Source: Erysipelotrichaceae bacterium MTC7 (GTDB taxonomy: Bacteria > Bacillota_I > Bacilli_A > Erysipelotrichales > Erysipelotrichaceae). Taken from it: a stretch of DNA of 32,000 nt. The notes beneath the pieces are model-generated. The model was not told where the DNA came from, ran no database searches, and saw only the letters and a program-made list of their open reading frames with translations. This document shows positions 2,915-31,221 of the stretch, in pieces (position 1 is the stretch's first letter; each line of letters begins with the position of its first letter). The stretch lies in the NCBI GenBank assembly GCA_001695645.1, contig LVZN01000078.1, positions 1 through 32,000 on the forward strand, read 5' to 3'. A program made the position numbers and the translations under genes.

Positions 2915-3294
2915 AGAATATCGATAGTACATGTGTTGTAAGGGGACACAAAGTATTAGTAAGCCTTCTTTTAATTGAAAAAAATCTATATTGAACTGTG
3001 ACTGTCGTTTAATAGATAAACAAATATGGTCCGTATGAATATCTGTATCATTTTGCATGCATATATTGATGTTTGAAACTATATTAGAGATCAGTTATCA
3101 ATATAACACACGGGCTACAAATTGAAAATAAAGTATATAAAGTGATTCCAGTATGGGTGAGCGACGATATAATGCGAATATATGTGGATAATTTTGAGAG
3201 TATTCAAAACAAAGACTATTAGATAAATTAAAAAAAATTCGTCATAAATTCGTCATAGAATAGGAAAATAGCATAATTTCATAAACAAAGAATA

Positions 3295-3429: not shown

Positions 3430-4563
3430 TCAGTTTTGCAATGCGTTTGACACCAATTTGACACCATCTTGCTTTTCAATGTATGCATTTAGTTGATTAC
3501 CAACATCACTTTTTTCATGATCTAAGTGGGCATAAATATCTGCAGTAATACGTATCGACTTATGGCCCATGAGTCTTTTCGCTTCTTGTAATGGCACTCC
3601 GGCATAAAATAGCATTGTACAATAATTATGGCGAAATACATATGGTGTAAGCCCGTCGCTATTGGCTGGTGGACGATTCTCTTGTAGTGCATAACGATTC
3701 ATAGCGTTTATAATTGTCTCCCAAAACCGTCGATATGCTTGTCCTGTGATGAGTTGATTATCTTTTACATTACGAAAGAAATAATCATCTCCAATATTAG
3801 AAATATAGAACTTGAAAAATGGAACTAAGTTATTCAAGATTGGCAAGTACCTTTTTCCTGCATCTGTTTTAGTCTCTTTCAAAATTGGTCTATTCTTCTT
3901 AAACACAAGAGCACGTTGAATAACCAATATTTTTTTGTTGAAGTCAAAATCTTTTGTATGGATAGCACGAGCTTCTTCAGGTCGTAAACCGAAATATTTG
4001 ATTAGATATACGAATGCTTGTTGTCGTTCAGTGAATTCAGCATGATCAGATAAGTAATTTTCATTATCGTTAAGTGGTCTTTTATCACTAGCAACATACT
4101 TTGGAATAACTAATCCATTGCAAGGATTTTTGCTTATCCAACCATCAATGATAGCTAGTTCAAAGATTTGTTTTGCACATATCTTTATCTTTTGACATGC
4201 ACGTGGATGTGCAATGTTTTCATTAATGATAGTTTGAATATGTTGCCTAGTAATCTCATCAAGATTTAAGTGGTCAAGACTTGCAAGGTGATTTAGCGTT
4301 GTAAGGTACATGCTTTGAGTGGCGTCGGATATATTAATACACTTTATCTTATACCATTCTTCTTTATACTTTCCAAACTTCACTTTGCTATTAACGTTTA
4401 TTCCAGCTGCAATTGAGAACTTCAGTTGGTCAGCTTGTTGCTCAACTTCTTTCTTTGTTTTACCATAAACGGTTTTATAGTTTGATTTGTTCGTTGTAGG
4501 ATCTATTCCAACATTTACTTTTATTTGCCATCTTCCATCTTTTCTCTTGGTTGCTTTTGGCAT
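3430..4563 (-). CDS. int: Tyrosine site-specific integrase
   Basis: N-terminal KRKDGRWQIKV SAM-like arm-binding region. C-terminal catalytic signature: FRHNYCTMLF, MGHKSIRITADIYAHL (R..HxxR..Y). RBS GGAGG lies upstream. Confidence 0.95.
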   Translation of the reverse strand: MPKATKRKDGRWQIKVNVGIDPTTNKSNYKTVYGKTKKEVEQQADQLKFSIAAGINVNSKVKFGKYKEEWYKIKCINISDATQSMYLTTLNHLASLDHLNLDEITRQHIQTIINENIAHPRACQKIKICAKQIFELAIIDGWISKNPCNGLVIPKYVASDKRPLNDNENYLSDHAEFTERQQAFVYLIKYFGLRPEEARAIHTKDFDFNKKILVIQRALVFKKNRPILKETKTDAGKRYLPILNNLVPFFKFYISNIGDDYFFRNVKDNQLITGQAYRRFWETIINAMNRYALQENRPPANSDGLTPYVFRHNYCTMLFYAGVPLQEAKRLMGHKSIRITADIYAHLDHEKSDVGNQLNAYIEKQDGVKLVSNALQN

Positions 4564-4837: not shown

Positions 4838-5812
4838 TTATAAATTGCTTTTTATATGATTCAGAATATTTTCTGGATCTTTTTTTAATTCTTCAAATAT
4901 GAAATTGATTGCCTTGTTTGAGTAAGAATAGCTCGGAGAAGAATGAATTGTGTTCACGTAACAAAAATCAGTCTTTTCTTTTATCTCAAAATGTTTACAA
5001 AAATTCGAAAAATGATAACTGTTAAATTTTGCTTTTTTATTGTCTTTATACGTGAGATAGATTCCTTCTTTTTTTAGTTTTCCATTTATGAGCTCAATAC
5101 ATTTTTTTGTTGTATACGCATGAGTTTTATTAGGGTCTTGTAGTTTATTAATTATTTTAACTCCAGTCTCCGCATTGGCATCTATTTTGACTTTTGAGGT
5201 AGCCTTGCTTTCGCTTTTTGTTATATAGTGGTGGTGATTAATTGAAATTGCAAAGTTAGCATTATTATTTTCACTTAAGTCATCAATATCACCTTTGTTT
5301 TTAAGTAATTTTGTTGCTATTTCTTCTGGATACTTGGCTACAATTTTGCTTTCATCTAACGTTTTCATACTAACAGATAGAGTAAGAAAATTTTGGGGGA
5401 TTATGGTTGTCATATCAATTTCATGAAATTGCTCCATTTTTTCATTAAAGTTTAATACGCAGGCTTGAAACAAAGGGACATAAACCATTTCATATTCCTC
5501 GGTTATAAAGTGTGTACTTGTGTTTCGAAGCTCAATGATTTTTTCAAGATTTCTTCGTAGTGGGTCTTTATCGTTGGTAAAGACTTTTTTAATGCAATTT
5601 TCTAAAGAAATTGTTCTATCTGGATTATCTGTGAAATAAATATTCTCACGTTTGTTCAACATATGGGCCTTTAGCATTAATTCCCATGAATTACATATAA
5701 ATAATGCAAAGCCCTCTACTCTATACCGTATAGTTGGTTTGTTATATATTTCTATAGCCATTTCAAAAGCTTCTACACTTTTTTTGATTAAACGATTTCT
5801 AATATCTTCCAT
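4838..5812 (-). CDS. DUF3644-like protein with an N-terminal HEPN-like Rx4H motif (candidate RNase/abortive-infection effector)
   Basis: N-terminus AIEIYNKPTIRYRVEGFALFICNSWELMLKA matches my recollection of DUF3644. ELRNTSTH gives R-x4-H (codons at 5525-5527 and 5510-5512). Start set to the ATG at 5812, which has GGGAGG upstream. Confidence 0.6.
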   Translation of the reverse strand: MEDIRNRLIKKSVEAFEMAIEIYNKPTIRYRVEGFALFICNSWELMLKAHMLNKRENIYFTDNPDRTISLENCIKKVFTNDKDPLRRNLEKIIELRNTSTHFITEEYEMVYVPLFQACVLNFNEKMEQFHEIDMTTIIPQNFLTLSVSMKTLDESKIVAKYPEEIATKLLKNKGDIDDLSENNNANFAISINHHHYITKSESKATSKVKIDANAETGVKIINKLQDPNKTHAYTTKKCIELINGKLKKEGIYLTYKDNKKAKFNSYHFSNFCKHFEIKEKTDFCYVNTIHSSPSYSYSNKAINFIFEELKKDPENILNHIKSNL

Positions 5813-5822
5813 ATATTCCTCC

Positions 5823-6113
5823 CTATTCCATGTTAATACCATAATCTTGTAGATACTGATCAGCATATGGCATAATCATATCTACTTCTTTTTCACAATC
5901 ATCTTCTGAACTAATATCTGTATTAAAGTGATTCTTTAGTATATGAATTAATTCGTGTTTTAGTGATTGTTTATTTACTTCAATACTGTAATTCCAATTT
6001 AACAAAACATAATAAGTATCTTCTAGTAAGTAACAAAGCCCCTTTGTTGTTTTAGGTAAACAACACCTAGTTACACATATGTTATTTTGTCTACAAAAAT
6101 CCTCGAATCCCAT
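5823..6113 (-). CDS. Minimal ImmA/IrrE-family (M78-like) zinc metallopeptidase
   Basis: HELIH (HExxH) at 5943-5957, preceded by a G....YYVLLN context typical of ImmA/IrrE cores. The ATG at 6113 has GGGAGG at 6122-6127. Its stop lies 10 nt before the next gene start. Confidence 0.65.
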   Translation of the reverse strand: MGFEDFCRQNNICVTRCCLPKTTKGLCYLLEDTYYVLLNWNYSIEVNKQSLKHELIHILKNHFNTDISSEDDCEKEVDMIMPYADQYLQDYGINME

Positions 6114-6170
6114 AAGTATGTACCTCCCCAAGTTATCATACTTGAGAATGTTACATCTATTCTGTACTGA

Positions 6171-6204
6171 TAAATAAAAGGAACAACTCTACTAAAGTTG
6201 TTCC
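6171..6204 (-). terminator. Terminator between the XRE/PemK-like pair and the ImmA-like/HEPN-like pair
   Basis: On the minus strand, GGAACAACT-ttagtag-AGTTGTTCC is followed by TTTTATTTA. Confidence 0.65.
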
Positions 6205-6262
6205 AGTCCGTGGCGTATAGCCTTACTCTTGACATATGTCAGTCCGTGGCGCAATGGCCTTG
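6204..6262 (-). repeat. Two direct repeats with 36-nt period, flanking a 10-bp palindrome
   Basis: CAGTCCGTGGCG..GCCTT occurs at 6204-6226 and 6240-6262: 12 nt are perfect, plus GCCTT after a 1-nt indel. The perfect palindrome GACATATGTC sits at 6231-6240. Confidence 0.6.
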
Positions 6263-6301
6263 TACTAATATAATATCACGAAACGAATATTTGTAAACAA
6301 C

Positions 6302-6799
6302 TTAAAATGTAAAATATTTCTTTATCTCATCATCGATTTTGTTCATATGTAATGGTGGTGCGAGTAAATGAAATAATGGGTCATATTCATTTATAAAAGG
6401 CTTAATTCTAAATTTACTTATCGTTGTAATGTTTTGAATAAGCGCATACGATTGTTTGATTTTAGAATGATAGAAATCTAAATTTTCTTGTAATTTGTCA
6501 GTGACACCTAGTAATTGTGATTTTAAAGCAATCCCTCTATTAAAATCTCGAGCCACTCTTTTTAGATATTCCTCGGTACCTGAATAAACTAAGGCAAATA
6601 TCATATTCTTTAATGGTAGATAATAACGCTTAGATTTAGAACTTAAAGGAATGACTGTAAGGACACCGTTAAAATTTGAGTCCTTTTTAGTTAGGACGAT
6701 AGCAAAATGTATTCCGCTTAATTCATTCCCAACTCCCTTGCCAAAATCCACAGATACTATTTGACCTCTTTTATAAGTTTGATATTTGATTGGTTTCAC
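6302..6799 (-). CDS. PemK/MazF-fold toxin-like protein with a ~50-aa insertion
   Basis: RGQIVSVDFGKGVGNELSGIHFAIVLT...VIPLSSKSK and ALIQNITTISKFRI align by eye to MazF GDLIWVDFDPTKGSEQAGHRPAVVLS...VPCTTQSK and DQVKSIAWRAR. GTG start directly abuts the upstream stop (TAAGTG). Confidence 0.65.
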   Translation of the reverse strand: MKPIKYQTYKRGQIVSVDFGKGVGNELSGIHFAIVLTKKDSNFNGVLTVIPLSSKSKRYYLPLKNMIFALVYSGTEEYLKRVARDFNRGIALKSQLLGVTDKLQENLDFYHSKIKQSYALIQNITTISKFRIKPFINEYDPLFHLLAPPLHMNKIDDEIKKYFTF

Positions 6800-7288
6800 T
6801 TAGTCCATACCTCTTTCAGCTCTTATACCCTTGATGACAGTTAGAATACGCTCCATGTCTTCAGGACTTAGATCCTTTGTTTTATCAAATAATAAGACTA
6901 AATTGTCATTTTCTCGAATAGAGTTATATATTTCTAATAATTCTGGATTGTTCTTTTCTAGATATTCGGTAGTGGGGTTAGATGGCTTGATAATGTCTGA
7001 GAATGATTTGTAATCATCATTTTCTTTATCGTTAAAATCAAAATAGAACATACCTTTGGAAAGTAATTCATCAATATCCAAATCAAGTGCCTTGCATATT
7101 AACTCCAAGGTATCCATGTCTACACGAGATTTACCATCCTCATATCTTTTGAGTGTGCTTTTTGTTTTCACTCCACCGATTGCTTCGCTTAATCGATCCA
7201 AACTTATATCTTTTTCTATTCTACGTTCTTTAAGAACTTTTCCGAGTTGCTTGTACAATTCCATATCAAATTTGTTAAGAGCAGTCAT
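6800..7288 (-). CDS. XRE-family HTH repressor (CI/ImmR-like, no S24 peptidase domain)
   Basis: N-terminal HTH_XRE pattern (LKERRIEKDISLDRLSEAIG...STLKRYEDG). Divergent from a cro-like gene across an operator-rich region. Confidence 0.85.
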   Translation of the reverse strand: MTALNKFDMELYKQLGKVLKERRIEKDISLDRLSEAIGGVKTKSTLKRYEDGKSRVDMDTLELICKALDLDIDELLSKGMFYFDFNDKENDDYKSFSDIIKPSNPTTEYLEKNNPELLEIYNSIRENDNLVLLFDKTKDLSPEDMERILTVIKGIRAERGMD

Positions 7289-7440
7289 GGTCCATTTCCC
7301 CCTTATATAAATGCATTATACCATAAAAATGGTACACTTCAATATAAAAACCATTTTTTTGGCACATTTCTCTTGCAATAAGAAAATCTTTGTTTTATAC
7401 TTTGGATGTGCCACATAAATGGCACATGAAAGGAGAAACA
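7289..7440. promoter_or_regulatory. Divergent promoter/operator switch region
   Basis: Minus strand: TTGAAG (7342-7337), N16, TGgTATAAT (7323-7315). Plus strand: TTGCAA (7373-7378), N17, TATACT (7396-7401). Related 20-bp operators sit at 7318-7337, 7348-7367 and 7408-7427, with consensus roughly GTGCCAtAAAAAtGGCACAc. Confidence 0.7.
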
Positions 7441-7635
7441 ATGGAAGATAAAATCACAGTAAAAGAAGCACGTGAAAAAGCAGGATACTCTATAAGAGAA
7501 ATGGCTGAATTGATGGGTTGGGTTAAAACAACATATGTTAACAAAGAGAATGGAATTAGTAAGTTCTATGTGGATGAGGCAGTAAGATTTAGTAGAATAG
7601 TCAAGGTTCCAATGAGCAATATCATTTTTTTTTGA
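7441..7635 (+). CDS. Cro-like XRE-family HTH protein
   Basis: ITVKEAREKAGYSIREMAELMG is an HTH. AAAGGAG RBS precedes the ATG at 7441. Confidence 0.8.
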   Translation: MEDKITVKEAREKAGYSIREMAELMGWVKTTYVNKENGISKFYVDEAVRFSRIVKVPMSNIIFF

Positions 7636-7642
7636 ACATGAT

Positions 7643-7662
7643 GTGCCATAAAAACGGAACAC
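7643..7662. promoter_or_regulatory. Fourth operator-like site
   Basis: GTGCCATAAAAACGGAACAC matches the 7318-7337 operator at 16/20 positions. Confidence 0.55.
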
Positions 7663-7686
7663 TTACACAATAAGAAAGGAGGAAGT

Positions 7687-7893
7687 ATGGAAAAGATAAT
7701 GCGTGTAACTGAACTAGTAGAACTAGGATATGACCGCGCTACTTTAGTTAGATGGATGGATGAACCTGATTTTCCAAAAATCAAACTAGGGTTAAATCAA
7801 AAGTCGCCCTGGGGCATACCGGTAAAGTCATTTAAGAAATGGCAAGAAAAACATGGGATGTTACATGGCGACATAAAAAAAGATGATTCCTAA
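7687..7893 (+). CDS. Small HTH DNA-binding protein (excisionase/AlpA-like HTH_17)
   Basis: MRVTELVELGYDRATLVRWMDEPDFPKIK resembles excisionase-family HTH. Strong AGGAGG RBS. Confidence 0.5.
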   Translation: MEKIMRVTELVELGYDRATLVRWMDEPDFPKIKLGLNQKSPWGIPVKSFKKWQEKHGMLHGDIKKDDS

Positions 7894-7972
7894 TGCCCTG
7901 GAAAGCGAAGAATCATCAAAACAAGTAATGGCTAACTAGCCTTACTTATTATAACACAAATGAGGTAAAAAT

Positions 7973-8170
7973 ATGAAAATTGGAAATACAAACTATACAC
8001 AAGCAGAAGATGATTGCTTTGGATATTACTTAAAAAAGCATCCACTACTATGGTTCAACATTATCGCAATTATTGTGTGTGCTTGTTTGTATGGTAGCCA
8101 AGAAATTGAAAAGGCACATGCAAAGACAGTCGAACAAGATGCAATTGTAGAAGTTACACAAAGCGAATGA
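7973..8170 (+). CDS. Small membrane-anchor protein; probably the N-terminal part of an interrupted 3D-domain protein
   Basis: One hydrophobic helix (LLWFNIIAIIVCACLYG). Ends at TGA 8168-8170, which is in frame with the following 3D-domain ORF. Confidence 0.55.
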   Translation: MKIGNTNYTQAEDDCFGYYLKKHPLLWFNIIAIIVCACLYGSQEIEKAHAKTVEQDAIVEVTQSE

Positions 8171-8245
8171 GTACCTGCTGCCAAAGTAAGTAACAGTTTA
8201 GCACCTGTTGAAGAAACGGTAGGAGAACAAAATGCGCTTACAAGT

Positions 8246-8509
8246 TTGGGAACGTTCAAAATTACGTACTATTGGCCTGGTGAAGACCAGTATGGACATG
8301 CAACATCAACGGGAGCATATGCTACTGAAGGAACTACTATTGCCGTGGATCCAACAGTAATACCTTATGGGACTGAAGTGGTAATTGATGGACACACATA
8401 CGTTGCGCAAGATTGTGGCGGAGCCGTAAAGGGAAATGTGATTGACATCTTTGTGGAAAGTCCACATATGGATGCATATTTCGCAGAAGTATATATGAAG
8501 GAGGAGTAA
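8246..8509 (+). CDS. 3D domain (MltA/RlpA-like double-psi beta-barrel) protein; C-terminal part
   Basis: GTFKITYYWPGE...GTTIAVDPTVIPYGT...DCGGAVKGNVIDIF is the 3D-domain pattern. Only a TTG start without RBS is available. The frame is open back to the TGA at 8168. Confidence 0.65.
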   Translation: MGTFKITYYWPGEDQYGHATSTGAYATEGTTIAVDPTVIPYGTEVVIDGHTYVAQDCGGAVKGNVIDIFVESPHMDAYFAEVYMKEE

Positions 8510-8511
8510 TT

Positions 8512-8841
8512 ATGCAAGAAGGGAAAGTGACGAGAGTGAAACCAGGTGATTGGATCATTTACAAAAAAGGTGAAGAATACTGGGAAATCGGACTTGTAAA
8601 AAAAGAAATCCAAACTGGTAAAGGTTGTATGGCTTGGTATCACTGTGGTGGCACTGTGGCATCAACCCCATATGAAGTTATTATTTTTAGAAGTGAACAT
8701 ATTGAAGAAATAGTTGCCTATTTCTATAGATATAACAAACGAATTTTTAATAGATATGCAATTACAAGTTTGTTAGTCCGTAAGTATGCATTAATGAGTG
8801 AAAGCAAAATAATCGATATAACAGATTTAATAGATTTTTAA
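8512..8841 (+). CDS. Hypothetical phage protein
   Basis: ORF with GGAGGAG RBS, tightly packed in the early operon. Confidence 0.7.
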   Translation: MQEGKVTRVKPGDWIIYKKGEEYWEIGLVKKEIQTGKGCMAWYHCGGTVASTPYEVIIFRSEHIEEIVAYFYRYNKRIFNRYAITSLLVRKYALMSESKIIDITDLIDF

Positions 8842-8855
8842 AGGAGAAACATTAA

Positions 8856-9080
8856 ATGAAAGTAAAAGTAATAGAAATAAATAGTCTTAAAGACTTAGAT
8901 TCAGCATTGGATGAAGTGATTGAAGAAATTCGTAATGCATCAGATGAGAATGAGGCAGTAGAGGATGAACATGATTGTGAAACGATTACTGCATTGCGAA
9001 AAGAAAACGAAGAATTGCGATTGGAACTAAGTACATATAAAGCGAAGTTACGTCATGTGCAAGAAATCGTGAATAGTTAA
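8856..9080 (+). CDS. Hypothetical acidic coiled-coil protein
   Basis: ORF with AAAGGAG RBS. Confidence 0.65.
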   Translation: MKVKVIEINSLKDLDSALDEVIEEIRNASDENEAVEDEHDCETITALRKENEELRLELSTYKAKLRHVQEIVNS

Positions 9081-9095
9081 TGAAAGGGGAACAAT

Positions 9096-10403
9096 ATGAA
9101 CGAGCAAATTAAAATTAACAAACTCGAGATTGAAAATGTCAAACGAGTAAAGGCAGTAGTTATTGAACCGACTGCAGAAGGTTTGACGGTAATCGGCGGA
9201 AAGAACTCCCAAGGAAAAACAAGCGTGCTGGATGCCATAGCATGGGCCTTAGGTGGGAACAAATTCAAACCTAGCAAAGCAGAACGAGAAGGGTCTACAA
9301 TTCCACCTCATTTACGTTTAGAACTAAGCAACGGGCTAATTGTAGAACGCAAGGGTAAAAATAGTGACTTGAAGGTTACTGATCCACAGGGCAACAAAGG
9401 TGGCCAACAACTGCTAGATTCATTTGTAGAACAACTTGCATTGAACTTACCGAAGTTCATGGAAGCAACGAACAAAGAAAAAGCAGATACACTACTACAA
9501 ATTATTGGAGTAGGTGATAAGTTGTACGAATTAGAGATGCAAGAAGAGAAGATATACAACGAACGTCATGCTATTGGACAAATTGCTGATCAGAAGAAAA
9601 AGTTTGCTGAAGAACTTCCATTCGATCCTACAGCACCAAAAGAACCAGTAGCAGCTAGTGAATTGATTCAAAAGCAACAAGAGATTCTAGCGCGTAATGG
9701 TGAGAACCAACGCAAAAGACAAAACGTTGAGTATCTAAGAAGTAACCACGTTTCATTGTTGAGTCAAAAAGAGCAATTAGAAAAGCAACTTGCTGAATTA
9801 AATGAAAAAGTAAATGCAAGCACAATTGATTTAGCTACAGCAGAAAAAAGTGCATTAGATCTTCATGATGAGTCAACTGAAGAACTAGAAAAAAATATTC
9901 AAGAAGTTGAAGCAATTAATGTGAAGGTACGTGCAAATCTCGACAAAGAAAAGGCTGAAGGCGAAGCAATTGAGTACAAAGAAAAGTACGATGCACTTAC
10001 TGAGCAAATTGAAGAAGTACGTAAACAAAAAGCTGACTTATTACAAGGTGCAGATTTACCACTACAAGGTTTGATGGTCGAAAATGGTGTGCTTATCTAT
10101 AACGGCCAACAATGGGACAACATGTCATCAAGTGAGCAACTACGAGTTGCTACAGCAATTGTACGTAAATTGAAACCACAATGCGGATTCGTATTGCTTG
10201 ATAAGTTGGAAATGATGGACATTGATACGTTGAACGAATTTGGTAAATGGCTTGAAGGTGAAGGCTTACAAGCAATCGCAACTCGAGTAAGTACTGGAGA
10301 AGAATGTAGCATCATTATCGAAGATGGATATGCAGTTGATGCGATTCCACTAGCTACTAAAGCACCAGTTGAACAGCCGACATGGAAGGCAGGTGAATTC
10401 TAA
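9096..10403 (+). CDS. SMC/Rad50/RecF-like ATPase (AAA_23-type)
   Basis: Walker A GGKNSQGKTS at the N-terminus, a long coiled-coil middle, an ABC-signature-like SSSEQLR and Walker B FVLLDKLE at the C-terminus. Confidence 0.8.
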   Translation: MNEQIKINKLEIENVKRVKAVVIEPTAEGLTVIGGKNSQGKTSVLDAIAWALGGNKFKPSKAEREGSTIPPHLRLELSNGLIVERKGKNSDLKVTDPQGNKGGQQLLDSFVEQLALNLPKFMEATNKEKADTLLQIIGVGDKLYELEMQEEKIYNERHAIGQIADQKKKFAEELPFDPTAPKEPVAASELIQKQQEILARNGENQRKRQNVEYLRSNHVSLLSQKEQLEKQLAELNEKVNASTIDLATAEKSALDLHDESTEELEKNIQEVEAINVKVRANLDKEKAEGEAIEYKEKYDALTEQIEEVRKQKADLLQGADLPLQGLMVENGVLIYNGQQWDNMSSSEQLRVATAIVRKLKPQCGFVLLDKLEMMDIDTLNEFGKWLEGEGLQAIATRVSTGEECSIIIEDGYAVDAIPLATKAPVEQPTWKAGEF

Positions 10404-10582
10404 TGGGATTAGTTATTACAGTAATCAAAGAAGATAAAACACCTAAATCAAGACACGTAGGAGTATCTGATAACACTTATGAAAAGTTAGTTGAATTATC
10501 AAAGAAAACGAATAGAAACAAGAGTGAGTTAGCAAACATGTTGATTGAATACGCTCTTGATAATGTCGAGGTGAAAAAATAA
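10403..10582 (+). CDS. Ribbon-helix-helix (CopG/Arc-like) small protein, 59 aa
   Basis: Below the ORF-track cutoff. TAATG-type overlaps at both ends. VGVSDNTYEKLVELSKKTNRNKSELANMLIEYAL fits a strand-helix-helix pattern. Confidence 0.6.
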   Translation: MGLVITVIKEDKTPKSRHVGVSDNTYEKLVELSKKTNRNKSELANMLIEYALDNVEVKK

Positions 10583-11649
10583 TGAATATTACAAAAGGAA
10601 AAATTGAAAGTGCAAAAAAAACTGTAGTATACGGACCTGAAGGGATCGGTAAATCAACGCTAGCAGCACAATGGCCTGACCCACTGTTTATTGATACAGA
10701 GGGTGGAACAAAGAGTTTAGATGTCGCTCGTTTAGATAAACCAACGTCCTACACAATGTTGCTACAACAAATACAATTTGTTAAACAAAACAGACCATGT
10801 GGAACATTGGTCATTGACACGATTGATTGGGCCGAACGGTTAGTAACCGACTTTATTTGCCAACGAGTAAACAAGACAAGTATTACACAATTCGGATACG
10901 GTGAAGGGTTCTTACAGCTTGAAGAAGAAATTGGTCGCTTGTTGAACAACTTATCTGATTTAACCGAAATAGGAATCCATGTGGTGTTAGTTGCGCATGC
11001 TAAAATCAATAAATTTGAGCAACCGGACGAAATGGGAGCTTACGACCGCTACGAATTGAAGTTAGGAAACAAAACAACTGCTAAGACTGCATCATTAGTA
11101 AAAGAGTGGGCTGATATGGTTCTATTCTGCAATTACAAAACAATTTCGGTGGCTACTGATGATAAAGGTAAGAAGTTTAAAGGACAAGGTGGTAAACGTG
11201 TGATCTATACAACTCATGCACCAGCATGGGATGCGAAGAACCGTGATGGTCTTCCTGATTTTGTAGACATGGATTACAAGAACATCGAACATGTAATTAA
11301 AACGTTTAATGTTGCAGCTCCTGTTGAACCAGTGGCACCACCTGTTACACAACAAGCACCTGTTCAAGAAGTTAAACACGAACCTGTACAGCAAGCAGCA
11401 CCAACTGAGACCCCATTGACTATCGCAATTGATGAAAGCGATTATGTCGGATTACCACAAGCTCTCGTTGACTTGATGAAACCTGAGCAAGTGAGTAAGG
11501 CAATGGTTGAAGATGTGGTTTCAGAAAAAGGGTATTTCCCTAAAGGGACACCTATCACGAATTATCCACAGGAATTTATCGATGGTGTCTTGATTGCAGC
11601 GTGGCCACAAGTATTAGAAATGATTAATGAGAAAAGGATAACATTCTAA
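10582..11649 (+). CDS. Sak4-like RecA-fold ATPase (AAA_24) with a P/Q-rich linker and C-terminal domain
   Basis: VVYGPEGIGKSTLAAQWPDPLFIDTEGG Walker A context and HVVLVAHA Walker B context, typical of AAA_24. Confidence 0.8.
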   Translation: MNITKGKIESAKKTVVYGPEGIGKSTLAAQWPDPLFIDTEGGTKSLDVARLDKPTSYTMLLQQIQFVKQNRPCGTLVIDTIDWAERLVTDFICQRVNKTSITQFGYGEGFLQLEEEIGRLLNNLSDLTEIGIHVVLVAHAKINKFEQPDEMGAYDRYELKLGNKTTAKTASLVKEWADMVLFCNYKTISVATDDKGKKFKGQGGKRVIYTTHAPAWDAKNRDGLPDFVDMDYKNIEHVIKTFNVAAPVEPVAPPVTQQAPVQEVKHEPVQQAAPTETPLTIAIDESDYVGLPQALVDLMKPEQVSKAMVEDVVSEKGYFPKGTPITNYPQEFIDGVLIAAWPQVLEMINEKRITF

Positions 11650-20200: not shown

Positions 20201-20594
20201 CATGAGCTTCTTTCTTCCGATGAAGAAAATCCCAACAGTAACACATCAGCAAAAGAAAGTGTCAGTCGTAAAAGGCAAACCAGTTTTCTATGAGGAAGAT
20301 GATTTGAAAGCTGCACGATCTAAATTCATGGCAATGCTTGGCCAAAAAGCTCCAAGCGATAAATTCAAAGGACCTATCCGGTTGACTACTTGGTGGTGTT
20401 TCCCTGTGACTAAGAATAAAAGCGATGGAGAGTACAAAGTCACTAAGCCCGATACAGACAACCTAGTAAAACTCTTTAAGGACTGTATGACTGCTGTGGG
20501 ATTTTGGAAGGATGATGCAGAAGTGGCTAGTGAAGTGATTGAAAAGTACCATGCTGACATCGTGGGTATTTGGGTGAAGGTAGAAGAGTTATGA
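20190..20594 (+). CDS. rusA: RusA-family Holliday junction resolvase
   Basis: KPDTDNLVKLFKDCMTAVGFWKDDAEV is the RusA catalytic-region pattern. Confidence 0.85.
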   Translation: MMSSMSFFLPMKKIPTVTHQQKKVSVVKGKPVFYEEDDLKAARSKFMAMLGQKAPSDKFKGPIRLTTWWCFPVTKNKSDGEYKVTKPDTDNLVKLFKDCMTAVGFWKDDAEVASEVIEKYHADIVGIWVKVEEL

Positions 20595-24626: not shown

Positions 24627-26138
24627 ATGGGGTGGTTTAAAAACATGTTACGATCATGGCTAAATATTCAAAATCTAAATGGACGTCAATTCTACATTCA
24701 AAACATGATGGACTTTGATGCTAACGTTTTCAAAAATTATATGTGGTATCGTGGGGATCCTGAAGAACTACATCAATTCTTCCAACAAGTAGGAAGTGAA
24801 GATGCATCTTTTTGGGCAACAGCTACACGTGGAGTGCGCAAAATCCATACAGGGATACCTGCACTTATTGCAGATGTATTATCGGATATTGTCATTCAAG
24901 ATATGAACGAAGTCACAGCAACTACTAGACAAGTTGACGTTGACTATATTTGCAACAAAAACGATATTGAAAACCTGTTAAGCAATTCACTGCCATACGT
25001 ATTGGTAAAAGGTGATGGTGCTTTCAAGATATCGTTTGATTTGAAAGTAGGAGATTATCCTATTATCGAATTCTACGAAGCCGATAAGGTCGAGTTCAAA
25101 TATGAACGAAGCAAGTATAGTGAAACTATATTCAAGAATTATATTGAACATGATAATCGTCATTATGTTCATAAAGAAATCTACGGATATGGCTATATAA
25201 AGAACGAACTCTACACATTGGATGATAACAAAAAGGTCCCTATGAATACTGTACCTGAATTAGCTGATGTCAAAGATTTCATTTTTGCTGGAGCTGAAGT
25301 TGATAAGCAAGGAATTATTTCAAAATATGGAACGCTGAACATGGCTGTTCCTTTTTTAATATTCAAAAGTGCTAAGTTCAAATATCGTGGGAAATCGATT
25401 TTTGAAACAAAACAAGGTAACTTCGATGCGTTAGATGAAGTTGTATCGCAATGGATAGATGCAATTCGCAAAGGGCGTACTACAAGATACATTCCTGAAC
25501 GTTTATTACCTAGAAACCCTAAAACGGGTGAGACATTAATGAAGAATGATTTTGAATCATCATATATTCAAACCAAAGGTGATATCTCTGAAGGCGGTAA
25601 TAAGATTCAAGTTGAAACACCTAATATCCAAGCTGAACAGTATTTACAAACATATGTGACAGTATTGGACCTGTGCTTGCAGGGGTTAATCAGTCCATCT
25701 ACTTTAGGAATTGATAACAAGAAGTTAGATAACGCTGAAGCACAACGTGAGAAAGAGAAAGCGACTCTTTATACACGTGGAAAAATCGTAGAAGCCTTAC
25801 TTAAGGTGATTCCAAAATTATTGAATGTATCGATAAAAGCGATGGATGTATATCATATGAAATCTATTACTGAAGATGATATCGAAATCTCAATTGCATT
25901 TGGTGAATATGCCAACCCTTCATTTGAATCAGTTGTAGAAACTATGGCAAAAGCTCGCCAAGGTCAATCGATGAGTACGGAGAAGATCGTTGATGAAATG
26001 TATGGTGATTCGCTAACTGCTGAAGAAAAAGAAGAAGAAGTAAAACGTATCAAAGAAGAGTATGGTCTAGTGCAAATGGATGAACCAGGAATGTTTAATT
26101 CTGATGTTCCTGACCCAACGTTGGAGGAGAATGTATGA
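24627..26138 (+). CDS. Portal protein (SPP1 gp6-like)
   Basis: Size, position after TerL, and an N-terminal WYRGDPEELHQFF pattern. Confidence 0.85.
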   Translation: MGWFKNMLRSWLNIQNLNGRQFYIQNMMDFDANVFKNYMWYRGDPEELHQFFQQVGSEDASFWATATRGVRKIHTGIPALIADVLSDIVIQDMNEVTATTRQVDVDYICNKNDIENLLSNSLPYVLVKGDGAFKISFDLKVGDYPIIEFYEADKVEFKYERSKYSETIFKNYIEHDNRHYVHKEIYGYGYIKNELYTLDDNKKVPMNTVPELADVKDFIFAGAEVDKQGIISKYGTLNMAVPFLIFKSAKFKYRGKSIFETKQGNFDALDEVVSQWIDAIRKGRTTRYIPERLLPRNPKTGETLMKNDFESSYIQTKGDISEGGNKIQVETPNIQAEQYLQTYVTVLDLCLQGLISPSTLGIDNKKLDNAEAQREKEKATLYTRGKIVEALLKVIPKLLNVSIKAMDVYHMKSITEDDIEISIAFGEYANPSFESVVETMAKARQGQSMSTEKIVDEMYGDSLTAEEKEEEVKRIKEEYGLVQMDEPGMFNSDVPDPTLEENV

Positions 26139-28587: not shown

Positions 28588-29235
28588 ATGAAAGAACAAA
28601 ACAAGTATCCATTAAACATTCAATTATTTGGAGGTGGTGACCCAGCAGGAGGGGCAGATGGAGGTGCAGGAGCACCTAATCCACAATCTCAAACACAGCC
28701 AAGTGCAACACCGGAAATTGACTACAACAAGTTAAGTGAAGTTGTTGCTGGCAGACAAGCTAATGCGGGAGATTCTGCACTTAAAGGTTTCTTTAAAAGC
28801 CAAGGCCTAACTGAAGAGCAAGCAAAAGAAGCTATGACTAAGTACAAGGCGGACCAAGCAGCTGCAAAAGAAGCTGAAGCCAATAAGTACAAAGAACTTG
28901 AAACTGAAAACGCAAAGCTTAAAGCACAAATATTGAATCGTGAGCTTGATGCGTCATTAACAACTTTAGCTGCTGCTGAAGGGGTTGATGCACAAAAAGT
29001 CGGACGTTTACTAAAGTTAGTAGAACGCGAAGGTTTAGTAGGTGAAGACGGAAAAATCATTGATGATAAAGCAAAAACTGCCATCAATGACGTTTTAAAA
29101 GATTTCCCTGAATTTAAGTCAAATCCAAACGGAACAGGAGGGTTCCAACCTATCGGAACTCCAGGAACTGATGGTGGTTCAGGAAGTGAGACCAGAATTC
29201 AAGATGGTCGAATTATTTTACCAAGTAAAAAATAG
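28588..29235 (+). CDS. Scaffolding protein (DUF4355-like)
   Basis: N-terminal PLNIQLFGGG motif, Ala/Glu/Lys coiled-coil core, position before the capsid gene. Confidence 0.8.
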   Translation: MKEQNKYPLNIQLFGGGDPAGGADGGAGAPNPQSQTQPSATPEIDYNKLSEVVAGRQANAGDSALKGFFKSQGLTEEQAKEAMTKYKADQAAAKEAEANKYKELETENAKLKAQILNRELDASLTTLAAAEGVDAQKVGRLLKLVEREGLVGEDGKIIDDKAKTAINDVLKDFPEFKSNPNGTGGFQPIGTPGTDGGSGSETRIQDGRIILPSKK

Positions 29236-29249
29236 GAGGAAGAAATTTT

Positions 29250-30140
29250 ATGATTAACTATGTATCACAGTTTTACAATCAAATTATGGAATTGTATGGA
29301 TCTGATTTAAAGTCAGTAAAACTATTCAATTCTAACCCAACGATTAAAATTATTAACACAAAAGATATTCGCTTGCCGAAAATCAAAACAAGTGGATATA
29401 AGGACCATACGCGTGGTTCACTTGGTTTCAATTCCGGAACATATGAAAACGAGTTTGAAACAAAAACTCTTGATCATGACCGTGACATTGAGTTTGTAGT
29501 AGATCCAATGGATGTAGATGAAACAAACCAAGTTCTATCAATTGGAAATATTCAACACGACTTTGACCGCCGTCAATCAATTCCTGAACTTGACTGCTAC
29601 ACATTCTCTAAACTATATAGTGAATTAAACCGCGTTGCACCTGCTAACATTTCTACTGATGTCATTACAAAAACAAACATTCTTGCTGACTTTGATGCTG
29701 TTGTGGAAAAACTAGAAAATGATGGTGTGCCAATTTCGCGCTGCATTATCTACTGTACATCTACATACAAAAAGATTTTGAAAAATGCTGAAGGTATCCA
29801 ACGTACGTTAGATGTTTCAAAAGGGAACGGATTGGACCGTCGTGTTACTTCTATGGAAAATTTCGACGAAATTGTAACAGTACCATTAGAACGTTTCAAA
29901 ACAGCATACGACTTCTCTGATGGTTATGCAGTTGCGACAACTGGAAAACAAATCAACTACATTATCGTAGATCCTGATGCACAGGTTTCTCGTGTGAAAT
30001 ATTCATACATTCACATGTTTGCACCTGGTAGTGATTCACGTACAGCTGATAATTACCTGTACCAAAATCGTCGTTTCAATGGAACGTTTGCTTTAGATGA
30101 TTTCTTAAGCAAAGCTTGTTACATGAACGTAGAAGCGTAA
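29250..30140 (+). CDS. Major capsid protein
   Basis: Size, position after the scaffold gene, strong RBS, high-expression-style codon usage. Confidence 0.75.
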   Translation: MINYVSQFYNQIMELYGSDLKSVKLFNSNPTIKIINTKDIRLPKIKTSGYKDHTRGSLGFNSGTYENEFETKTLDHDRDIEFVVDPMDVDETNQVLSIGNIQHDFDRRQSIPELDCYTFSKLYSELNRVAPANISTDVITKTNILADFDAVVEKLENDGVPISRCIIYCTSTYKKILKNAEGIQRTLDVSKGNGLDRRVTSMENFDEIVTVPLERFKTAYDFSDGYAVATTGKQINYIIVDPDAQVSRVKYSYIHMFAPGSDSRTADNYLYQNRRFNGTFALDDFLSKACYMNVEA

Positions 30141-30884: not shown

Positions 30885-31221
30885 GTATCCACAGTTAGTC
30901 CCCGATTCAGTATGCACCACACCGATTGAAGTAACGATTTACAAAGAAGAGTTAGGGCCTACAGGTGGGCCACAAGTTGCGATAGATGCAACATCATTGA
31001 AATGTAATTTCCAAGATGAAGCCTATCAAATATTAAATGCTGAGAAGAGTCTTATCACTTTAAATGGTAAGGCTCTTTTTAATGGAGATATTGCACCTGG
31101 ATTAGCAACTATCTCAAATGGTTTTGTAATTGTACATGGCGAAAAAAGACAAATTTACAAAGGTCGAAAATCACGCAATCCTGATGGTTCAGTGAATTTC
31201 ACGACATTGGAGTTGAAGTGA
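30880..31221 (+). CDS. Head closure/head-tail adaptor-like protein, probably starting at a non-canonical ATT
   Basis: The frame is open from 30862 with plausible protein sequence. AGGAG (30867-30871) lies 8 nt before the ATT at 30880. The first canonical start (TTG 30997) has no RBS and would leave 113 nt unexplained. Confidence 0.45.
   Translation: MKYPQLVPDSVCTTPIEVTIYKEELGPTGGPQVAIDATSLKCNFQDEAYQILNAEKSLITLNGKALFNGDIAPGLATISNGFVIVHGEKRQIYKGRKSRNPDGSVNFTTLELK

Follow-up and report, generated by a model that had tools for sequence, protein, structure and literature searches.

The window analysed here, that is, the whole stretch of 32,000 nucleotides (nt), is part of contig LVZN01000078.1 of Erysipelotrichaceae bacterium MTC7, and its GC content is 35.8%. 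This report concerns the locus at 7973-8509, hereafter called the TM-3D gene. In this locus, an open reading frame (ORF) encoding one transmembrane (TM) helix and an ORF encoding a 3D domain lie in one frame and are split only by a TGA at 8168-8170. The features of the locus are as follows.

7962-7966, plus strand: Shine-Dalgarno sequence GAGGT, 6 nt upstream of ATG 7973, as read off the sequence
7973-8167, plus strand: N-terminal ORF of 65 codons starting at ATG 7973, with one TM helix
8168-8170, plus strand: in-frame TGA (codon 66) in the context GAA TGA GTA, the proposed read-through site
8171-8245, plus strand: linker of 25 codons, open in frame 0 only
8246-8509, plus strand: 3D domain (putative YuiC/MltA-like lytic transglycosylase), with the stop TAA at 8507-8509
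8348-8350, 8411-8413 and 8444-8446, plus strand: Asp codons for D126, D147 and D158, respectively

The TM helix covers approximately residues 25-41 (nt 8045-8095), and two Lys residues (KK) are located just N-terminal of the hydrophobic stretch. When the TGA is read through, the translation gives 178 amino acids (aa) in a single frame from ATG 7973 to the TAA at 8507-8509. A preliminary description of this DNA had stated that the two ORFs share one frame, that the 25 codons at 8171-8245 are free of stops, and that the 3D part has neither an ATG nor a GTG start; all three statements were confirmed on the sequence. No in-frame ATG or GTG is present between the TGA at 8168-8170 and the 3D domain, and the sole candidate start is TTG 8246, which sits 20 nt downstream of the closest AGGAG (8221-8225). 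An open stretch of 25 codons is expected by chance with a probability of about 0.17-0.20. The observation in a single sequence is therefore weak, and it is the comparative data that supply the strength of the argument. Transcriptional slippage was rejected as an explanation, because it would need longer A-runs than are present and the downstream ORF is already in frame.

The region downstream of the TGA matched the Pfam family 3D (PF06725) with 49.5 bits against a cutoff of 23.8 (E 5e-13), and a PDB profile match to YuiC of Bacillus subtilis was also obtained (E 5e-8). D126, D147 and D158 are invariant in the homologue alignment and correspond to D129, D151 and D162 of YuiC. The roles of these three Asp residues of YuiC have been described, D162 being catalytic (PMC4499186). 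The AlphaFold model contained a helix at residues 24-64, a segment at 65-78 with a predicted local distance difference test score (pLDDT) below 50, and a confident beta-barrel at 89-176; the block averages over the domain were mostly pLDDT 85-95. The best Foldseek matches of the model were YuiC (4wlk, 4wjt and 4wli), followed by MltA, and the modelled barrel has the double-psi beta-barrel fold. We therefore regard the 3D domain as a putative YuiC/MltA-like peptidoglycan lytic transglycosylase. In the same model, the TGA falls where the helix ends and the disordered linker begins. Because the TGA maps to this position, any residue inserted there should be tolerated.

Homologues were drawn from a collection of 5.8 billion proteins. 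The intact homologues of 155-185 aa are single proteins that begin with a TM helix or a signal peptide, continue with a linker that is helical or variable, and end in the 3D domain, which bears out the earlier statement that a TM anchor, a linker and a 3D domain form the usual architecture. Homologues of 117-128 aa have a short signal peptide or derive from gene calls truncated at the 5' end, and no bare cytoplasmic 3D domain was found among the homologues examined. In the window, the ORF past the TGA has no signal; that is, the membrane anchor would be joined to the 3D domain only via read-through.

The 65-aa product of the N-terminal ORF is identical to OCN03561.1 of Erysipelotrichaceae bacterium MTC7, which is annotated as a hypothetical protein. 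The 90% cluster of OCN03561.1 includes a 65-aa protein from 4 unclassified Breznakia strains (10 contigs). The Breznakia copy of the gene is found in IMG/VR as UViG_2940359323 (loci L002 and L038). L002 aligns over all 178 residues of the read-through product with 80% aa identity, and in both loci the TGA stands at the identical codon (...VEVTQSE*VPAA...) and is followed by the same 25 open codons. Frames 1 and 2 of the linker contain 2-3 stops apiece, in the window and L002 alike. The preliminary description had considered that the TGA might be a sequencing error or a recent nonsense mutation. Since the Breznakia orthologue has the TGA at the same codon, it is neither of these, and an assembly error is also refuted by the independent annotation of OCN03561.1 and the Breznakia protein. 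A check proposed at that time was whether orthologues encode two genes with their own starts. We found that the orthologue has the same stop and no start in common with the window: TTG 8246 is TTA in L002, and the in-frame GTG of L002 is GCG in the window.

In order to clarify the selection on each part of the gene, we compared the window with L002 by the Nei-Gojobori method and calculated the ratio of non-synonymous to synonymous substitution rates (dN/dS). The dN/dS value was 0.11 in the N-terminal ORF and about 1.0 in the linker, which has zero indels. In the 3D domain it was 0.135 at a synonymous divergence (dS) of 0.69, with 26 synonymous against 18 non-synonymous differences in 87 codons. 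The domain downstream of the TGA has no indels and no stops, and D126, D147, D158 and the family-invariant residues are all retained. The TGA is older than the split of the window and Breznakia lineages (dS about 0.4-0.7). Because the dN/dS of the 3D domain has been 0.135 since the lineages with the shared TGA parted, the comparison of the two sequences indicates that the domain has been under strong purifying selection for as long as the stop has existed. The age of the TGA, this dN/dS value and the three retained Asp residues likewise refute a recent nonsense pseudogene. By the same comparison, the protein sequence of the linker evolves freely.

When window 7930-8090 is aligned with L002 5958-6118, near identity sets in at about 7948 in the 5' untranslated region and extends over the opening ~117 nt of the gene. 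The remainder of the gene differs from L002 by ~15-45%, and the TGA lies outside the near-identical block. This mosaic pattern of identity suggests recent recombination at the 5' end of the gene. Megablast of 7600-9100 against GenBank phages gave no match, a scan of genome contigs for relatives returned one distant locus only, in IMG/VR a DNA pattern spanning the TGA matched the Breznakia UViG and no other entry, and a scan of metagenomes gave no orthologue closer than Breznakia. The exact 65-aa and 109-aa window proteins have no entry in the contig index; the 65-aa protein is present in the protein collection. P0035 (Breznakia PFB2-30) was rejected as a third window-type lineage, its gene being cut by the contig end. 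Since no further orthologue was found in IMG/VR or the metagenomes, the window-type TGA site is supported by two lineages only.

One more ORF overlaps the 3D part of the gene.

8232-8360, plus strand: 42-aa ORF, out of frame, inside the 3D gene; its ATG is 6 nt past AGGAG, an ideal spacing for a ribosome-binding site

The counterpart of ATG 8232 is missing in L002, where the frame closes immediately. Because it is not conserved in L002, this ORF is probably fortuitous and not a gene. Its ATG could still compete for ribosomes.

The preliminary description had also stated that TGA is a genuine stop elsewhere in the window, and this was the case. TGA terminates int (3430-3432), the gene ending at 20592-20594, the portal-like gene (26136-26138) and the ORF ending at 31219-31221; the portal-like gene ends in an ATGA overlap and the last ORF in a GTGA overlap. 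A same-frame junction analysis, used to find genes that require an in-frame TGA, revealed no second such gene across the 32 kb window. Crude ORF-length totals under alternative codes were uninformative. Neither a suppressor tRNA (anticodon UCA) nor a tRNA of any kind was found in the 32 kb window. Genetic code 4 would be recognized by many in-frame TGAs and by the absence of TGA as a stop; the window has one in-frame TGA in 32 kb.

Related loci were taken from genomes, metagenomes and IMG/VR. About 90 loci read, which belong to at least 18 clusters at 80% aa identity, have one in-frame TGA each, placed after the TM/coiled-coil part, which holds the anchor, and before the 3D domain. At the following loci, the TGA occupies the conserved Trp codon of K-W-x-S/A-L-G-x-F-x-I-T-Y-Y-W, 10 codons before YYW, and we call this position the W site.

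W-site TGA: L040-L105, L108-L113, L116, L117, L121, L133, L134, L141, L142, L001, L005-L010, L154-L156

The codon before the W-site TGA is AAA, AAG or AAT. The W-site TGA is located two codons ahead of the conserved LGxFxITYYW motif, where the domain begins, and therefore an independent start is impossible there. In sister lineages (L119, L147, L148, Amboise, L123 and L125), the Trp codon is TGG. The W-site loci are not code-4 phages, because their neighbouring genes (for an SMC-like protein of 452 aa and an AAA_24 protein of 364 aa, syntenic with window 9096-11649) encode Trp by TGG and are free of in-frame TGA, and because TGA serves as a stop in relatives (11/26 called genes in L147 and 9/27 in L148). 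On the coding strand of the relatives, no same-frame TGA junction occurs consistently except that of the TM-3D gene.

The arrangement is present in a cultured phage, Clostridium phage Maintenon (ON453900), whose host is [Clostridium] innocuum. In this phage, a 113-aa 'hypothetical protein' ends at TGA 6204. Within 5865-6490 of Maintenon (L149/L153, ON453900.1), the 3D ORF is unannotated and is overlain by two small spurious coding sequence (CDS) calls on the minus strand. TGA is the commonest of the annotated stops of Maintenon (31/71), and the annotated late genes are full-length CDSs. The same TGA arrangement is found in a very prevalent prophage of Faecalibacillus intestinalis. For the TGA lineages, four hosts are known by name, namely MTC7, Breznakia, C. 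innocuum and Faecalibacillus. All four are members of Erysipelotrichales, although any generalization about hosts has only these four data points. Maintenon also encodes tRNA-Trp(CCA), tRNA-Gln(TTG) and tRNA-Met at 29137-29616. The anticodon stem of this tRNA-Trp is canonical, and an initial assignment of a 4-bp stem was rejected for this reason. In our parse of the predicted cloverleaf the tRNA has U11:A24, like the Hirsh suppressor of E. coli. B. subtilis tRNA-Trp shares the U11:A24 feature.

Several public proteins of 175-178 aa (P0031, P0081, P0087, P0056, P0065 and others) have W at the junction, and in all of them the codon is TGA. Evidently, metagenomic gene callers chose code 4 for these short contigs, and the stop was masked. 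P0137 (124 aa, WP_270590929.1) was rejected as a member of the P0087 cluster, as it is the product of an unrelated downstream neighbour gene.

A separate observation concerns L106, L107, L109, L114, L115 and L118. In addition to the W-site TGA, these loci have a 1-nt insertion past YYW-P (TGG CCC A GGA GAA GAT). The insertion, near locus nt 2960-3000, is found in these six loci from different samples, and it leaves the 3D domain, intact and still conserved, in the +1 frame. With a +1 shift at CCC-AGG, the reading would return to ...YYWPGED.... The arrangement could be a second case of recoding, or these loci could form a lineage of pseudogenes.

We examined whether the stop itself bears signs of selection. 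In a rough neighbour-joining tree of the domain (~100 aa), the TGA and TGG lineages were interleaved, and the TGA lineages diverge to 41% aa identity. TGG within a TGA cluster was seen in 0 of ~90 loci. In the lineage of the window and Breznakia, the Trp has been lost (Ala or Val is found there) and the TGA lies 23 codons further upstream, still at the boundary between anchor and domain. Because the TGA and TGG lineages interleave and the window lineage has relocated its TGA, these sequences argue that the stop itself is a selected feature. The base after every W-site TGA (position +4) is A, even though the residue that follows may be K, R, T or I; in the TGG lineages read, the base at the same position is C, G or T. 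UGA followed by A is especially liable to misreading by tRNA-Trp, according to PMC5289835, which cites Engelberg-Kulka 1981. PMC7918605, citing Karow 1998, gives the read-through of UGA in wild-type B. subtilis as 6%.

Folding of the 63 nt from the TGA predicted an RNA structure in the linker.

8175-8225, plus strand: predicted two-helix RNA hairpin with the arms 8175-8182/8218-8225 and 8191-8196/8205-8210

This hairpin begins 4 nt past the TGA (the 8th nt from its U), and the same fold was predicted in the window (-14.3 kcal/mol) and in L002 (-15.2 kcal/mol). The shared pairs are standard in both sequences (12/12), and 3 of them are kept through two-sided changes (C-G/U-A, U-G/G-C and A-U/U-G); slid controls were 25-62% paired. 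Where the linker shows islands of conserved nucleotides (CCTGCTGC, CAG, CTG and GTAGGAG), these coincide exactly with the stem arms. A hairpin with compensatory pairs at 8175-8225 is thus suggestive as a comparative prediction, although its statistics are weak because only two sequences have the window-type site. In 11/18 W-site representatives, a different hairpin was predicted 7-10 nt past the TGA, in which GGCCA of the LGQ codons pairs with UGGCC of the YWP codons. The Gly codon is GGC in 7/11 LGQ lineages, against a background use of 11% (46% for GGA), and the W-site-type fold was not seen in the TGG lineages. We regard the W-site hairpin and the GGC bias as suggestive, these lineages being non-independent. 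RNAalifold on all W-site lineages gave no consensus structure, and Rfam gave no match for 8168-8230.

Taken comprehensively, we consider it likely, on these comparisons, that 7973-8509 is one functional gene with a conserved leaky UGA that is subject to programmed translational read-through. At UGA 8168, termination would be the outcome for most ribosomes, and a 65-aa membrane peptide would be released. Because KK precedes the TM helix, this peptide would take the type-II orientation (N-in/C-out). A minority of ribosomes would decode the UGA by a near-cognate tRNA, the likeliest being tRNA-Trp(CCA), and would then cross the disordered linker into the 3D domain. In B. subtilis and E. coli, misreading of UGA has been reported for tRNA-Trp(CCA). 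Such decoding would yield a type-II membrane-anchored protein of 178 aa, an extracytoplasmic YuiC/MltA-like lytic transglycosylase of peptidoglycan, made at a low dose from an early phage operon, and the hairpin 4 nt past the UGA may raise the read-through. What the sequences show directly is the layout of the locus, the conserved TGA, the purifying selection on the domain past it, the absence of a shared start, the architecture of the family and the recurrent gene-specific TGA of the relatives. That read-through occurs, which amino acid enters, in what ratio the two products are made, and what the hairpin and the enzyme do biologically are inferences. The preliminary description had listed low-level read-through yielding an anchored wall-active protein among its possibilities. 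This suggestion fits all the comparative evidence and is greatly strengthened by the family-wide recurrence of a gene-specific TGA.

Several points weigh against this explanation. The context in the window and L002 is UGA-G, not the UGA-A that has been reported as leaky for tRNA-Trp; this lowers our confidence in efficient Trp read-through at the window site, while it has no bearing on whether read-through happens. The lineage counts given above are raw, and the lineages are phylogenetically non-independent. As for the hairpin of the window, 58/500 shuffles reached the observed score and the fold z-scores were -1.3 and -1.75, with two sequences only. In addition, the 3' arm of the hairpin holds AGGAG, a good Shine-Dalgarno sequence, and a GTG is ideally spaced after it in L002. 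Finally, the basis of the read-through explanation is comparative and computational throughout, and the fused product is a predicted one.

The point about AGGAG leads to the explanation that the locus contains two genes, the 3D ORF being initiated separately, either at TTG 8246 or by coupling to termination. In the coupled version, a ribosome halting at the UGA melts the hairpin and frees AGGAG (8221-8225) for a new initiation. It is in keeping with this idea that AGGAG is conserved within an otherwise freely evolving linker, that the hairpin would sequester this Shine-Dalgarno sequence, and that L002 has an in-frame GTG 8 nt past AGGAG, where gene callers place a 91-aa ORF. However, the starts are not shared, since the window has GCG for the GTG of L002 and L002 has TTA for the TTG of the window. 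In the window, the TTG is 20 nt from AGGAG, and the well-spaced ATG 8232 is out of frame and unconserved. An enzyme initiated separately would have no export signal, unlike every intact homologue. In the W-site lineages, the domain opens two codons past the TGA and the Leu codon there is variously CTT, TTA, CTA, CTC, CTG or TTG, and therefore reinitiation cannot be general; coupling of the ATGA type at the W site was rejected, because the ATG or TTG that overlaps the stop does not lie in the frame of the 3D domain. Thus, separate initiation is viable for L002 and not viable for the window, and as an account of the locus we think it unlikely.

The other explanations seem to us less probable again. 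An inherited pseudogene, arising by a nonsense mutation in the ancestor of the MTC7 and Breznakia prophages and leaving the 3D part to decay, would need a common mutation only, namely the change of TGG or another codon to TGA, and prophage genes are enriched in in-frame stops, many of which are taken as pseudogenes in PMC7918605. A decaying domain is difficult to reconcile with a dN/dS of 0.135, the absence of indels and stops, and the intact catalytic Asp and family-invariant residues, and at least 18 further clusters, which include a cultured viable phage, show the same architecture; we thus hold this explanation to be very improbable. Selenocysteine recoding of the UGA would account for a hairpin directly 3' of the UGA, as in bacterial selenocysteine insertion sequence (SECIS) elements, but Rfam had no match at 8168-8230, the site falls in a disordered linker whose sequence varies and where the homologues have neither Cys nor a conserved residue, and the TGA of the sister lineages stands for Trp, not Cys. 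We give this explanation very little credence. The least probable in our opinion is an artefact of sequencing or assembly, or the use of code 4 (TGA as Trp) by the phage or host. Some public calls do write W at the TGA of this family (P0031 and P0087). Nevertheless, independent assemblies are concordant, TGA ends int, the portal-like gene and other window genes, no other gene needs it as a sense codon, and the window has no suppressor tRNA; in phages recoded genome-wide, in-frame stops occur in 26-71% of genes, whereas here they occur in one gene.

Going beyond the read-through explanation for this single gene, we propose tentatively that temperate phages of Erysipelotrichales carry a conserved recoding module. 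In this module, a UGA at the boundary between anchor and transglycosylase would be read at a set low frequency with the aid of a 3' hairpin, the stop being mostly a Trp-site UGA-A and a relocated one in the window lineage. As a whole, this proposal must be called doubtful. If it holds, this would be the earliest described case, in a phage system of bacteria with double-stranded DNA (dsDNA), of read-through that is assisted by RNA structure and inserts a standard amino acid. The module may exploit an unusually permissive UGA-to-Trp decoding in this sister group of the code-4 Mollicutes; the four named TGA hosts all belong to Erysipelotrichales, and Maintenon even has its own tRNA-Trp(CCA).

The surroundings of the gene are those of a prophage lysogeny switch and early operon by Pfam assignment: int, a cI-like gene, a cro-like gene and the TM-3D gene, followed by a recombination/replication module. 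The other features in this part of the window are listed here.

4838-5866, minus strand: DUF3644 + EC042_2821 restriction-endonuclease-like protein
6302-6799, minus strand: PemK/MazF-like toxin-domain protein, abutting the cI-like gene and directly downstream of it
6800-7288, minus strand: cI-like helix-turn-helix (HTH) repressor (Pfam)
7438-7635, plus strand: cro-like HTH protein (Pfam)

The TM-3D gene belongs to the early rightward operon. No terminator-like site was found in 7200-9200, and promoter-like matches in the same range were at background level, with none inside 7973-8509. The same synteny around the TM-3D gene is seen in L005, L007, L119 and Maintenon. The DUF3644/EC042_2821 and PemK/MazF-like proteins are possible defence or addiction cargo of the prophage. 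In L002, a tRNA-Arg(CCG) at 3018-3094 adjoins the integrase end of the Breznakia element and is likely the attachment site.

If the read-through explanation is true, a widespread gene family of human-gut prophages would offer a natural and testable bacterial read-through system. Its handles are the cultured Maintenon on C. innocuum and the prevalent Faecalibacillus prophage, together with the cis-elements, that is, UGA-A, the hairpins and the relocated stop. There are consequences for annotation as well: the enzyme domain is missed, MTC7 and Breznakia receiving only the call of a 65-aa hypothetical protein, and metagenomic callers change to code 4 without any warning, so that the stop appears as W. 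The arrangement suggests that these phages use one message to balance the dose of an enzyme that cuts the wall, and is potentially dangerous, against that of a small membrane partner.

In bacteria, programmed read-through that inserts a standard amino acid is considered very rare, and the textbook case is the RNA phage Q-beta, in which leaky read-through of the UGA of the coat gene by the near-cognate tRNA-Trp gives the A1 protein. Like that system, the TM-3D gene would have one in-frame leaky UGA, with a short major product and a C-terminally extended minor product, and the tRNA-Trp route is likely. The UGA-A of the sister lineages is also the context reported as leaky in PMC5289835. Unlike the Q-beta gene, the TM-3D gene is an early gene without a structural role, its phage is a temperate dsDNA phage of Erysipelotrichales, and the extension is an enzyme domain. 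The window also differs in having UGA-G and a possible 3' hairpin, and its products are predicted from sequence.

To our knowledge, no 3' structural stimulator of read-through with a standard amino acid has been described in bacteria. In eukaryotic viruses, such as alphaviruses and others, 3' RNA structure stimulates read-through (PMC3159437). The window resembles the alphavirus type in having a stem-loop a few nt past the UGA and in showing nucleotide conservation and covariation where the protein is unconstrained; it differs in being bacterial and in that the evidence for the hairpin consists of two sequences.

As for the enzyme, YorM of the SP-beta prophage is a prophage-borne member of the Sps/3D proteins (PMC1084345). 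The TM-3D product shares with the Sps/3D proteins (YuiC, YocH, YabE and YorM) and MltA the three-Asp motif, the YuiC/MltA fold and, if the TGA is read through, a secreted or anchored architecture. The genes of those proteins are uninterrupted, whereas in the window a stop codon stands between the anchor and the catalytic domain and is the only bridge from one to the other.

Recoding is also known on a genome-wide scale in gut phages. Borges et al. (10.1101/2021.08.26.457843) reported that such phages recode 26-71% of their genes, mainly late ones and often with suppressor tRNAs, and proposed that recoding regulates expression. The code 4 and code 15 phages and the present ones are alike as gut phages with TGA aligned to Trp, but here exactly one early gene is concerned and TGA is otherwise a normal and frequent stop. 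No description of the in-frame UGA of the TM-3D family was found in the literature searched. The passages searched of the statistical survey of Belinky et al. 2021 (PMC7918605) contain no mention of the TM-3D family, of Trp-site specificity, or of context or structure. They describe conserved in-frame stops with constrained downstream sequence, over-represented in the mobilome. The TM-3D case is an instance of this general phenomenon, with the difference that many prophage cases are treated in the survey as pseudogenes. In conclusion, the mechanism of read-through is known, and what would be new here is its setting in a dsDNA temperate phage, in an early enzyme gene, with a Trp-site UGA-A or a relocated UGA, and possibly with hairpins.

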